64,000 nucleotides of DNA from Shigella phage sb3, in sequence record PQ666541; one strand, given 5' to 3'. Below, piece after piece: positions 49,546 to 54,202 of the stretch; within the stretch, counting starts at the first letter, position 1, and each line of letters starts with the position of its first letter. The notes beneath the pieces are model-generated. The model saw only the letters and a program-made list of their open reading frames with translations. It made no database searches and had not been told where the DNA came from. A program made the translations under genes and the position numbers.

Positions 49546-49834
49546 ATCGGTGTTTACAATGACGACATTTATAACGAAGATTATTAGTATGCCAATGAAC
49601 TAATTGAACCTGTTCAGTACCGCATTCAGGACAATTAGGAACGTTTTTAGAAGCCCTTTCGCGACGTTCAACCATAGCCATAATGGCATCCCAAGCTGGA
49701 GGTTTAAAGTCTAAATCATCACAACCATGAATCTTTCCACGCATTTCCAGATCGTCTTCTTCACCAGCCATAATAATTTTAATTAGACTGGAATTACTTG
49801 AAGCTGCAATATCTTCTAATAAGCGCTTTTTCAT
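49517..49834 (-). CDS. Zinc-finger protein, hypothetical
   Basis: 105 aa; CPECG...CRHCKH pattern. Confidence 0.45.
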
Positions 49835-50760
49835 TTCAATACCTCAATAGCATTACGTAAACCATTTGCTTTTGCATTAAGAGCTTTTAACAATTTATTG
49901 TGTTCGGCAATCTGGGCTTCAACTTCAATCAAACGAGCATTGAGATATTCACGTTCTTCGCTCAAGTTATCAATCTTTTCTACTTTAGGCTCTTTTACAA
50001 CTGTCTTATATGTATTAGGGTTCTTCAGTTTAATTAGAATACGTGAACTGTATAACATTGAACCATTATCTTCGATTTCGTCATACATTTCTACTACGTC
50101 CATGATTTTTAACATCATGCGGAGTTTATAAGACAACGAACGAATAGTTTTGTTGTGCTTATTAATTTCTCTAGAGTTCATGGTGCCGAGATTACGTGAG
50201 TAATAATAAGGAACCTGGATATTAATTAACACTGATGAACCACCTGGCTTATGTGTTACTTCATCAGCAATAACCCAGTCCTTAACATGAACTGTATTTG
50301 TACGGTCATCACCAGCGGTAAATAGTTTGCGAGCATGCTTAAAAAGCATATTCACTTGGGTATTGAATTGACAAGCAAATTTATCAGCAAATTTAGTTTC
50401 AGGAATGGTAGATAACCAATCAGCCAAATGGGTCTTTTTAACATCGTTAACAATAGTAAATTCAACCAAATCAGTTATAGATGTCGCAGATTTAATGAAG
50501 CTTGGCTTCATAAAGTTTTTAATGTTATCGCGAGCTACAGTAGAAGATAACATACGAGAACGTTTAAACCATTCAAGCAAATTGCCTAACGAATGAGAAT
50601 AAGCGTTTTGAGTATCTTTACAGATATGATTTTCCTGACCAACATATTGAAGGAAATCACGAAGAATATTATTGATTACTGCTCTGTGTCCGATCTGATA
50701 ATTACGGTGTTTAGTAATAAGACTGTCAAAATAATCAATATAATGTTTACGAGTTTTCAT
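49831..50760 (-). CDS. Hypothetical protein with C-terminal coiled coil; member of tandem paralog family
   Basis: 309 aa; MKTR N-terminus and internal motifs shared with neighbours. Confidence 0.55.
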   Translation of the reverse strand: MKTRKHYIDYFDSLITKHRNYQIGHRAVINNILRDFLQYVGQENHICKDTQNAYSHSLGNLLEWFKRSRMLSSTVARDNIKNFMKPSFIKSATSITDLVEFTIVNDVKKTHLADWLSTIPETKFADKFACQFNTQVNMLFKHARKLFTAGDDRTNTVHVKDWVIADEVTHKPGGSSVLINIQVPYYYSRNLGTMNSREINKHNKTIRSLSYKLRMMLKIMDVVEMYDEIEDNGSMLYSSRILIKLKNPNTYKTVVKEPKVEKIDNLSEEREYLNARLIEVEAQIAEHNKLLKALNAKANGLRNAIEVLK

Positions 50761-50812
50761 GTTCTTCTCACTTGGTTAATGATTTATACTCCGAGCCATC
50801 CTTGGCTTTAAA

Positions 50813-51814
50813 TTACTTAATTAACTGTAAAGCTTGTTCAAGACGATCCAGGCGATTAACAGATTCTTCCCAAATCCTTTTAGCCTGCTCATATTCTTTC
50901 TGCGCTTTATTAGAAATTTCTAGAACTTCTTTATAAGCTTTTTCTAGTGCAATAACTTCTGGACGAATTTCTACCGGTTCAGGCGAATCATCAAGATTAT
51001 CCATTAGTTCCTCAAGGGTAGTTTCTTCTTTAGGAGTATTCACAATTTCCTCGCATTTCTGTTGATAAATTTCTTTATCAGTAGGTGAATAAGCACATTT
51101 CACTTCATGAAGACTAATTACAATTTTATATCCTTCCCAACCACCCATATTTTTGAAAGGATATGTATGAATACTTTTTACAGTTTCCATACAATCCAAA
51201 GCCGTTTCTAATTGATGAGTTATAGTGCTAGCAATTGAGAAAAATTTATTAATATTCTTTTGGTTAGCTTCTGGTGTAAAAAATTCATAATTCACAAAAA
51301 TAGCTACTTTATTTTTATCAAGCTCATATTCTTTTACGATAATCATATCAGAAGCCAAAGGATGAATTTGACGATAATCACCATAACATAATTTAGAAGC
51401 TGATTTTAAAAGTTGCTTCTTGAAAAGTCTGAAATTACTAATCCAACGACGAGTAAAAATATTCTTAGGGTCTTCTTTAATATTAAGATGATAAGAATTA
51501 ACATCACCGAACCAATTGTATCCTATTACACCTTTAGTTCGTTTAATTTCTTTCCCAAAATTACCAAGAATATCCCGATTAACCAAATATGAAAGAAGAC
51601 GAGACCCTTTAAAGGTTATCTTAATATCATCTTTATCTACGTGGCTAGAAATTTCACGAACTTCATGAATAAATTTACTGGAAGAAACAATACTTGCATC
51701 AATACTGCTGAGCCATTGATTGATAATAGAAAGAACAGCATTCTGACTAGACATGGGTTTAACTTTATCATCAATAACGCTATTGAATGATTTGATATAT
51801 TCGTTACGAGTCAT
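50813..51814 (-). CDS. Hypothetical protein with C-terminal coiled coil; paralog family member
   Basis: 333 aa from ATG at 51814 (GAGGAG SD, downstream of promoter); WxxNFRLFKKQL motif. Confidence 0.55.
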   Translation of the reverse strand: MTRNEYIKSFNSVIDDKVKPMSSQNAVLSIINQWLSSIDASIVSSSKFIHEVREISSHVDKDDIKITFKGSRLLSYLVNRDILGNFGKEIKRTKGVIGYNWFGDVNSYHLNIKEDPKNIFTRRWISNFRLFKKQLLKSASKLCYGDYRQIHPLASDMIIVKEYELDKNKVAIFVNYEFFTPEANQKNINKFFSIASTITHQLETALDCMETVKSIHTYPFKNMGGWEGYKIVISLHEVKCAYSPTDKEIYQQKCEEIVNTPKEETTLEELMDNLDDSPEPVEIRPEVIALEKAYKEVLEISNKAQKEYEQAKRIWEESVNRLDRLEQALQLIK

Positions 51815-51840
51815 AATAATCTCCTCAGTAGAAAGTAAGA

Positions 51841-52894: not shown

Positions 52895-52902
52895 GGTATT
52901 CC

Positions 52903-53793
52903 TTAAGATTTAAGTAAATCAACGATTTTAATTAACTTTTCACGCTCAGATTTAGCTTTACTACTCAATCCAGATAGTCTGAAAATTTCATCGTCATATT
53001 GTTGAATAGAAATATTCAGCTCTTCAATCTGTTTATTAAAATAATCAATTTGTTCAGAATGTTTTTCGTTACTACGAACTGGTACAGGTTTCGTAGGCAA
53101 TGTAGTTGAACTGGATTCATCCGGGCGATAAATTAAAATACAACTTGAACCAATAGGACATTTTGCCCCAGATGAATATTCTAATGTTCCAGCTTCTTTT
53201 AAAACTTCAAAAGCTAAACAGAGATGATGACCCATATTAACATAATCTGTAGAGTGAGCTCTGATGTAATAATCATCTCCACGAATACTAAATTTAAAGC
53301 ATTTAAGGTCTTCTGTATTATTGGTCTTAAAAATCATTTGTTTATCTAGACCTTTAGCTAATCGAGCGCCTAATGCTAATAATCGTCTTTGATTTTCCCA
53401 CAAATCTGCAATCATTTGGTCAAATGATAACTTCGGCATTAGTCGACCATAAAGGTCATATCCTTTATTATAATTACGAAGAATTTCACTCGCGTTAATA
53501 CGAGACAACGCTCCAATTTTATTAAGGGCTTTCATAATGCGATTAGATAAACTCATTCCAGATCCGTTCGTTCGCTGCAAATGTTTTTCTAATCCAAATC
53601 CAATATCAACTTTAAATTTATCTAAAATTTCGGCATGAACATCTTTATCAATAACATTCAAATCCAAAGTTGGGTTAAATCTATGAAAAAATTTATCTGG
53701 CTCTCCACGGCGAAATACAGTCCATTCATTCATCATTTTTTTATTAACTAAAGATTTAATTACTGCATTGACATTATTAATTACTACTGACAT
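52903..53793 (-). CDS. Hypothetical protein with C-terminal coiled coil; paralog family member
   Basis: 296 aa from ATG at 53793 (GAGGAAAAT SD). Confidence 0.5.
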   Translation of the reverse strand: MSVVINNVNAVIKSLVNKKMMNEWTVFRRGEPDKFFHRFNPTLDLNVIDKDVHAEILDKFKVDIGFGLEKHLQRTNGSGMSLSNRIMKALNKIGALSRINASEILRNYNKGYDLYGRLMPKLSFDQMIADLWENQRRLLALGARLAKGLDKQMIFKTNNTEDLKCFKFSIRGDDYYIRAHSTDYVNMGHHLCLAFEVLKEAGTLEYSSGAKCPIGSSCILIYRPDESSSTTLPTKPVPVRSNEKHSEQIDYFNKQIEELNISIQQYDDEIFRLSGLSSKAKSEREKLIKIVDLLKS

Positions 53794-53800
53794 ATTTTCC

Positions 53801-54202
53801 TCACTCAATTTTACTAAATATACAGAATAAGATGGAACAGACTATATAAGCACCACACACAGATTGAACTAATACCATTCCAAAGAACCAAACAATATTA
53901 TCAAACAATGTCTGTTTTACGTCGAAAGGACGTAAACTTACAGTAATATTATCACCTTTTTCTATTGAAGAATACATCTCTGGGGAAATATATTCACTAA
54001 ATCTATAACCGTCTTTTAGTTCATATACGGCAATAAACGATAAACTAGACCCTTTTCCTTGTGTTCCTGTAATGGTATTAACTACAGTAACATCATAATC
54101 TTTATAATGCATATAATCATTAATTGCGTAATAACCATATGCAACTACTACACATAAACAACATATCAATAAATTCAATCTTTTAATTATCAACTGTTTC
54201 AT
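53801..54202 (-). CDS. Membrane protein, hypothetical
   Basis: 133 aa; N- and C-terminal hydrophobic helices. Confidence 0.5.
   Translation of the reverse strand: MKQLIIKRLNLLICCLCVVVAYGYYAINDYMHYKDYDVTVVNTITGTQGKGSSLSFIAVYELKDGYRFSEYISPEMYSSIEKGDNITVSLRPFDVKQTLFDNIVWFFGMVLVQSVCGAYIVCSILFCIFSKIE

Follow-up and report, generated by a model that had tools for sequence, protein, structure and literature searches.

The closest functionally described relative of the genes considered here is nrdC.5 of phage T4. Srikant, Guegler and Laub (eLife 2022, PMC9391042) reported that a T4 clone with compensatory deletions lost plating on ECOR17, that deletion of dsr1 in ECOR17 restored plating of this clone, and that cloned dsr1 protected MG1655. 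Supplying T4 nrdC.5 in trans restored infection of MG1655 carrying dsr1 by the deletion clone. Dsr1 is a sirtuin, NAD-depleting defence that T4 nrdC.5 overcomes genetically; the paper proposes no mechanism for nrdC.5 and does not mention paralogs, and our literature search for functional work on these genes returned this paper and no later one. A working analogy is offered by DSAD1, likewise a phage protein directed at a SIR2-domain NADase defence, which neutralises DSR2 by sitting on the sensor region to which a structural protein of the phage would otherwise bind.

We have analysed a stretch of 64,000 nucleotides from Shigella phage sb3 (PQ666541; the whole stretch is referred to as the window), in which the ortholog of nrdC.5 lies within a row of four consecutive, co-oriented, minus-strand genes that spans 49831-53808 in the ORF list. 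The window is a segment of a Tequatrovirus (T4-like) genome, with nrdD, gene 49 and nrdC among the surrounding open reading frames (ORFs), and positions 49500-55200 share 96-98% identity with many T4-like phages of Escherichia and Shigella. Set against annotated relatives and T4 itself, the four ORFs prove to be orthologs of nrdC.3, nrdC.4, nrdC.5 and nrdC.6 (paralogs A to D in Table 1), with amino acid identities to T4 of 60%, 89%, 94.7% (340 aa) and 97% (over 259 aa), respectively. The nrdC.5 ortholog has the same length and position as the T4 anti-Dsr1 gene, and the order nrdC.6, nrdC.5, nrdC.4 is that of T4. A first-pass annotation, made from the letters of the window, had proposed that these four genes are paralogs with common internal motifs and coiled-coil tails, that a fifth gene has a similar tail, and that the array is a local gene-family expansion of the kind often linked to host range or counter-defence; all-against-all alignment, structure prediction and comparison with other T4-like phages were suggested as checks. 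We find that the four genes are true, strongly diverged paralogs, chance resemblance being excluded, and that the array arose by tandem duplication of one ancestral gene confined to T4-like phages. They are most likely modular, oligomeric, early-expressed inhibitors of host immunity.

The comparison drew on 37 syntenic loci of T4-like phages that were collected by way of a conserved neighbour, NrdC.10, which is thus present in all 37 by design. The all-against-all alignment gave a mixed answer. By BLASTP, NrdC.3 and NrdC.4 are significantly similar (25% identity over 225 aa, E=2e-7), but the match between NrdC.4 and NrdC.5 is marginal (E ~0.35) and NrdC.6 has no significant match to any of the other three, and only with profiles are all four recovered. 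Iterative profile searches started from NrdC.5 and from NrdC.6 converge on the same intermediates in other genera and then reach the remaining paralogs. Because coiled coils can cause profile drift, tails were removed before the profile tests; each protein was cut at the near-invariant proline preceding the tail, and the part before it is referred to as the head. Pairwise hhalign comparison of shallow tail-trimmed subfamily profiles was strong for NrdC.3 and NrdC.4 only (P=6e-13), with the other pairs weak (1e-3 to 1e-5), and we therefore adopted a leave-one-family-out design in which hidden Markov models (HMMs) were trained on the heads of every subfamily but the tested one. The searched database held 3030 sequences, made up of the other locus ORFs and further sequences including 1220 composition-matched shuffled heads. 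Each family was recovered by the models that had not seen it, at E-values from 4e-15 to 8e-7 (Table 1), whereas the best shuffled decoy reached only E 0.13-0.68 (7-9 bits). The proposal of four consecutive paralogous genes is thus borne out on the heads.

Two alignments, one of 25 sequences across clades and a separate core-trimmed one of the four paralogs, define the architecture that the proteins have in common. Three motifs, a conserved proline and a terminal helix are collinear in each of the four proteins of the window and throughout the 25-sequence alignment. Motif 1, F[KR]xS..LS....A...L.NF, is common to all members; motif 2, F..xF......LL..A.[RK]L..GD.R, corresponds to the strings W.xNFRLFKKQL, WRFIALFRRQL and LWENQRRLL of the first-pass annotation, and motif 3, L..AL..MD.V, to its MDVVE/CMETV, so that the motifs quoted there are real and collinear. 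After motif 3 come the conserved proline and then a tail that ends L..A...L[KN]. The ORFs themselves and the role of NrdC.5 were already known, and the link between NrdC.3 and NrdC.4 was implicit in PHROGs; what is new here is the union of NrdC.3 to NrdC.6 and the single-copy genes of other genera in one superfamily, together with the architecture that they share and the prediction, which follows from both, that NrdC.3, NrdC.4 and NrdC.6 are candidates for counter-defence.

Structure prediction agrees with this picture. AlphaFold2 models were made for NrdC.4 (predicted local distance difference test score, pLDDT, 84.7; predicted template modelling score, pTM, 0.68) and NrdC.5 (pLDDT 72), and in these the secondary-structure elements follow one another in an identical order. 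At the N terminus, a helical bundle that closes with motif 1 is followed by a small sheet of three strands, the helix pair of motif 2 and a beta-hairpin; then come the long helix of motif 3, another hairpin, a linker modelled with low confidence and the terminal helix. Foldseek comparison of the NrdC.4 model with viral predicted structures gave 17 significant matches. All are uncharacterised, measure 280-375 aa and come from T4-like phages of Escherichia, Yersinia, Enterobacter, Klebsiella, Serratia, Erwinia, Pectobacterium and Acinetobacter. The three best matches of NrdC.5 (in Cronus, Mineola and fHe-Yen9-01) are also on the NrdC.4 list, and NrdC.6 is connected to the common fold through a match of the NrdC.4 model to annotated NrdC.6 of phage JS10 (E=2.3e-5).

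The heptad-rich coiled-coil tail that had been attributed to each of the four genes is likewise supported. Conserved hydrophobic columns of the tails recur with a period of 3.50 across a stretch of 49-56 columns, a periodicity whose power was reached in 0 of 1000 column permutations. This family-level test supersedes a single-sequence heptad score, which discriminated poorly (z ~2). The models end in a single uninterrupted helix of 48 residues in NrdC.4 and 56 residues in NrdC.5. In a profile search of Protein Data Bank (PDB) sequences the matches were confined to the tail and were to coiled coils of the GCN4, BST2, Lpp and SMC types, none of them significant. The T4 reference nrdC.6 (NC_000866, locus L039 8067-8894) encodes 275 aa and has a frameshift right after '...NKQIEEL', just inside the tail; NrdC.6 of the window and most relatives keep the coiled-coil tail that the T4 reference replaces. 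The claim of a fifth gene with a similar tail did not survive. That gene, at 54258-54785, is nrdC.8; its product is not matched by the tail HMM (E>10), hhalign finds no similarity to the tail, N-domain or full-length profiles (probability <=2.6%), and its C-terminal helices show marginal heptad periodicity only (P ~0.05).

Current family libraries keep these proteins apart, as NrdC.3 and NrdC.4 (phrog_1435, PF26897), NrdC.5, and NrdC.6 (phrog_2257), without assigned function. NrdC.5 has a full-length Pfam match to DUF7235 (PF23882; 398 bits, E=3e-119, against a gathering score of 30 bits), and it is the sole DUF7235 member among the four, since NrdC.3, NrdC.4 and NrdC.6 have no Pfam match to that family at E<=1 and are related to it at the superfamily level only. 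NrdC.3 and NrdC.4 both match phrog_1435 over their full length and NrdC.6 matches phrog_2257 (E below 1e-110 each), so that the relationship of the first two was already implicit in PHROGs; NrdC.5 and NrdC.6 do not match phrog_1435. Homologs of NrdC.4 carry the precomputed Pfam label PF26897. NCBIfam and PADLOC scans of the four proteins gave nothing meaningful, the sole match to PADLOC defence models being of NrdC.4 to BrxC (13 bits, E=0.004) at the level of coiled coils. We note a weak, sub-threshold match of the N-terminal helices of NrdC.3 (residues 30-86, DNA 50503-50673) to the SAM-like core-binding domain of tyrosine recombinases (Pfam E=0.064; NCBIfam XerD-type E=1e-3), far under the curated cut-offs (18 bits vs 279). 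Public records often label nrdC.3 to nrdC.6 'thioredoxin' or 'Mur ligase domain-containing protein', and neither name is backed by domain evidence. A thioredoxin identity was rejected for all four, as there is no thioredoxin-family match in Pfam or NCBIfam and the modelled architecture (of NrdC.4) is different. The likeness is limited to the gene-name prefix 'nrdC.' and to a position beside the true thioredoxin gene nrdC (49023-49286), and the 'thioredoxin' name is annotation carry-over.

The family is narrowly distributed. With the tail-free profile of the four paralogs, HMMER was run exhaustively against 1.84 billion representative proteins and found 14, all of them members or fragments of members from T4-like phages; when a word-indexed database was searched with the cross-clade alignment, nearly everything returned was a relative of NrdC.5. 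Across the syntenic loci, copy number among genera is 1, 2, 3 or 4. In most T4-like genera a single member lies immediately 5' of nrdC.2; three are present in Mosigvirus-like loci and in two further loci (L005 and L006), and four in Tequatrovirus. The suggested comparison with other T4-like loci thus confirms a local gene-family expansion. Independent tandem pairs occur in two loci (L028, 13751-15771; L029, 17220-19224) and an extra copy upstream of nrdC.10 in two others (L025, 8943-9884; L026, 9036-9803), so that the family has expanded on more than one occasion. In three loci (L027, L035 at 13103-14227, and L036) an ORF of 370-374 aa just upstream of nrdC occupies the usual position of the family without a sequence-profile match; we read these ORFs as probably very diverged members, because Erwinia phage Cronus and Serratia phage PS2 have similarly sized proteins that match structurally. 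ORFs of ~260-285 aa upstream of single-copy members were tested as extra paralogs and rejected.

Within Tequatrovirus the four genes differ in how they vary. At >=80% identity, phage records number ~500 for nrdC.6, ~494 for nrdC.5 and ~464 for nrdC.4, and nrdC.3 falls into discrete allele classes, with 357 records at >=90% identity and 284 at 60-80%. Compared with T4, nrdC.3 is a mosaic. Its first 60 and last 20 codons are conserved, the ends being 90-100% identical, whereas identity drops to 25-55% over the central 200 codons, where synonymous divergence (dS) is ~1.0 vs ~0.2 in flanking genes, which suggests that the core is an old allele cassette exchanged by recombination. The ratio of nonsynonymous to synonymous divergence (dN/dS) is 0.29 for nrdC.3, 0.29 for nrdC.4, 0.13 for nrdC.5 and 0.05 for nrdC.6; all four are under purifying selection and are therefore functional. 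Some phages have lost parts of the array. ACG-C40 (locus L040, NC_019399, 1013-1432) has nrdC.5 to nrdC.3 collapsed, leaving a 71-aa NrdC.5 fragment and a remnant of the NrdC.3 tail, and LYE-01 (locus L041, 3910-5922) is without nrdC.4. A hybrid protein, NrdC.5::NrdC.3 (P0056), is present on three contigs. A further candidate for module shuffling (P0059, 173 aa), with an NrdC.5 tail (87% identical) behind a foreign N-terminal region, was set aside as a possible assembly chimera, because no phage record matches its first 55 residues and its metagenome contig is only 803 nt long. Presence/absence variation and allelic diversity in near-identical genomes are more in keeping with accessory genes for host range than with core functions in takeover.

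What the four proteins do is suggested by NrdC.5. The proposed link to counter-defence stands for this one member, through the published genetics of T4 nrdC.5, of which the window copy is a 94.7% identical ortholog, and for the other three it is an extension from their relative; because nrdC.5 already switches off Dsr1, nrdC.3, nrdC.4 and nrdC.6 are good candidates for immune evasion, and we infer that they too have an anti-defence role. We consider it reasonably probable that host immune proteins are inhibited directly and stoichiometrically. In this reading each paralog is an early-expressed cytoplasmic protein in three parts: an alpha/beta head of ~240-280 residues, in which the three helix motifs hold together an N-terminal helical bundle and a helix/beta-hairpin core; a flexible linker beginning near the conserved proline; and a coiled-coil tail, a heptad helix of ~50 residues that most likely makes a dimer or higher oligomer. 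The head would bind a host immune protein, so that each paralog would act as a stoichiometric, oligomeric inhibitor, and oligomerisation would strengthen its hold on oligomeric targets through avidity. By duplication and the swapping of alleles the phage would have acquired a panel of heads against different defence proteins or variants of them. This proposal draws on the paralogy, the architecture, the early promoters, the dispensability and the narrow distribution, as observed here or available in the literature, and on the anti-Dsr1 phenotype of T4 NrdC.5; that binding is direct, which oligomer forms and what NrdC.3, NrdC.4 and NrdC.6 act on are the inferred parts of it.

Several observations weigh against this proposal. 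NrdC.5 alone has functional evidence, which is genetic, comes from T4 and not from the window phage, and is silent on mechanism. The structure predictions are of monomers, the oligomeric state being a deduction, and the loss of the tail from T4 NrdC.6 indicates that the tail is not indispensable in a laboratory strain. No dN/dS above 1 was seen among the four genes, and the high conservation of NrdC.6 (97% to T4, dN/dS 0.05) is atypical for a gene in an arms race. In NrdC.4 orthologs the beta-strands are slightly more variable than the helices (conservation 0.71 vs 0.77, P=0.03), a weak difference.

Other explanations are less attractive. That the resemblance reflects shared composition and convergent coiled-coil tails, with no paralogy at all, finds some encouragement in the BLASTP results for NrdC.6 (non-significant) and for NrdC.4 against NrdC.5 (marginal), and in the assignment of the proteins to three separate families by PHROGs and Pfam. 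However, tail-free profiles blind to the tested family still recover it when 1220 shuffles stay at E>=0.13, the motifs are collinear, and predicted folds and structural neighbours are held in common; the leave-one-out E-values set against the shuffled decoys refute this account, and we regard it as very improbable. The four paralogs might instead be subunits of a single machine, one hetero-oligomeric complex zipped together by the similar tails. The tails are indeed alignable across paralogs and have the same L..A...L[KN] end, and the genes lie side by side in one orientation, within two early transcription units. Yet most T4-like genera have just one member, so the ancestral protein works without partners, ACG-C40 and LYE-01 naturally do without subsets of the array, and the T4 reference NrdC.6 is tail-less. 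In addition, plasmid-borne nrdC.5 alone rescued the T4 deletion clone, although the text of the paper does not state whether the other paralogs were still present in that clone (PMC9391042). A hetero-oligomeric complex is unlikely.

A role unrelated to immunity, for instance as DNA- or nucleoid-associated host-takeover factors whose effect on Dsr1 is indirect (such as an altered Dsr1 signal), is also not what we expect, if perhaps a little easier to entertain. It could accommodate the resemblance of the NrdC.3 N-terminal helices to the recombinase SAM-like domain, and the published work on NrdC.5 proposes no mechanism. Both SAM-like matches are nevertheless far under their cut-offs, and the genes are dispensable, variably present and allelically diverse in genomes that are otherwise near-identical. 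Direct inhibition of immune proteins also has a more specific version, in which the heads mimic a phage structural protein of the tail-terminator/completion fold and serve as early decoys that occupy immune sensor domains before the late protein appears, analogous to the competition of DSAD1 with the tail tube protein for DSR2. We give this version rather little credence. Structural superposition on lambda gpU-type tail terminator/completion proteins scores under a convincing level, and the NrdC proteins differ from terminators in being early, non-structural and three times larger, and in two parts, the helical bundle and the coiled coil, that have no counterpart in terminators. An extended form is equally doubtful. 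It pictures a modular toolkit with a conserved coiled-coil handle and interchangeable heads that mimic late virion proteins (tail-terminator-like) and pre-saturate several immune sensors, in which NrdC.3, NrdC.4 and NrdC.6 would each disarm a distinct system and head cassettes would recombine between phages.

The coordinates of the array are given in Table 1. Two gene starts were corrected. For nrdC.4 the ORF list gave a TTG at 51865, which falls within an early promoter; the gene starts at the ATG at 51814, preceded by a GAGGAG Shine-Dalgarno sequence. For nrdC.6 the start was moved to the ATG at 53793 on reading the DNA. The promoter between nrdC.5 and nrdC.4, GTTTAC-N14-GTGGTATAAT, is a perfect T4 early promoter. 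The promoter upstream of nrdC.8 probably drives a transcript of nrdC.8, nrdC.7, nrdC.6 and nrdC.5.

Table 1. Positions of the four paralogs, their linkers and tails, and the early-type promoters in the window.
Feature	Position	Strand	Details
Paralog A, nrdC.3 ortholog	49831-50760	-	309 aa; phrog_1435 E=5e-116; leave-one-out N-domain HMM E=8e-7
Tail of A	49834-49998	-	Residues 255-309; boundary at conserved Pro; hhalign against other tails P=2.5e-6
Paralog B, nrdC.4 ortholog	50813-51814	-	333 aa; phrog_1435 E=7e-165; leave-one-out E=4e-15; model pLDDT 84.7
Linker and tail of B	50816-51040	-	DSSP helix 285-332 of 333 aa; low-confidence linker 274-282
Early-type promoter between C and B	51843-51872	-	GTTTAC-N14-GTGGTATAAT; DNA reading and consensus scan; annotated as T4 early promoter in phage SA20RB
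Paralog C, nrdC.5 ortholog	51872-52894	-	340 aa; DUF7235 E=3e-119; phrog_2351; leave-one-out E=1e-12; model pLDDT 72
Tail of C	51875-52054	-	Residues 281-340; model helix 284-339; hhalign against other tails P=9e-9
Linker of C	52055-52204	-	Residues 231-280; 50 residues, S/N-rich, pLDDT<50
Paralog D, nrdC.6 ortholog	52903-53793	-	296 aa; phrog_2257 E=4e-152; leave-one-out E=3e-8
Tail of D	52906-53082	-	Family tail alignment
Early-type promoter upstream of nrdC.8	54814-54842	-	Consensus scan TTTACA-17-TACTAT; counterpart annotated as T4 early promoter in SA20RB

Some neighbouring genes also deserve mention. The product of nrdC.7 (53801-54202) is a predicted membrane protein by T4 annotation and has the highest dN/dS vs T4 of the block (0.48); in other genera this gene lies elsewhere, after nrdC.2 (loci L005/L006, L007, L019-L024 and L037). 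NrdC.10 (55250-56230) resembles AAA/STAND-like ATPases, with sub-threshold Pfam matches only, and NrdC.11 (56608-57345) is an RlaP-type nucleotidyltransferase (Pfam E=2.5e-10). In the window nrdD (45231-47048) is one unbroken ORF of 605 aa, whereas T4 nrdD is annotated as split by a group I intron carrying the I-TevII homing endonuclease; this phage is therefore without the I-TevII group I intron.

Few of the many accessory early genes of T4 have known roles, and the relationships described here name three of them, nrdC.3, nrdC.4 and nrdC.6, as counter-defence candidates. They also delimit a family, specific to T4-like phages, whose members are spread over three unrelated groups in current libraries. 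For the question of how NrdC.5 acts on Dsr1 they provide a structural frame, in which the helical scaffold is conserved, the sheets vary more, the linker is disordered and the tail would oligomerise. Finally, the nrdC.3 alleles and the natural deletions in the array are material with which genotype may be linked to host range in therapeutic T4-like phages.

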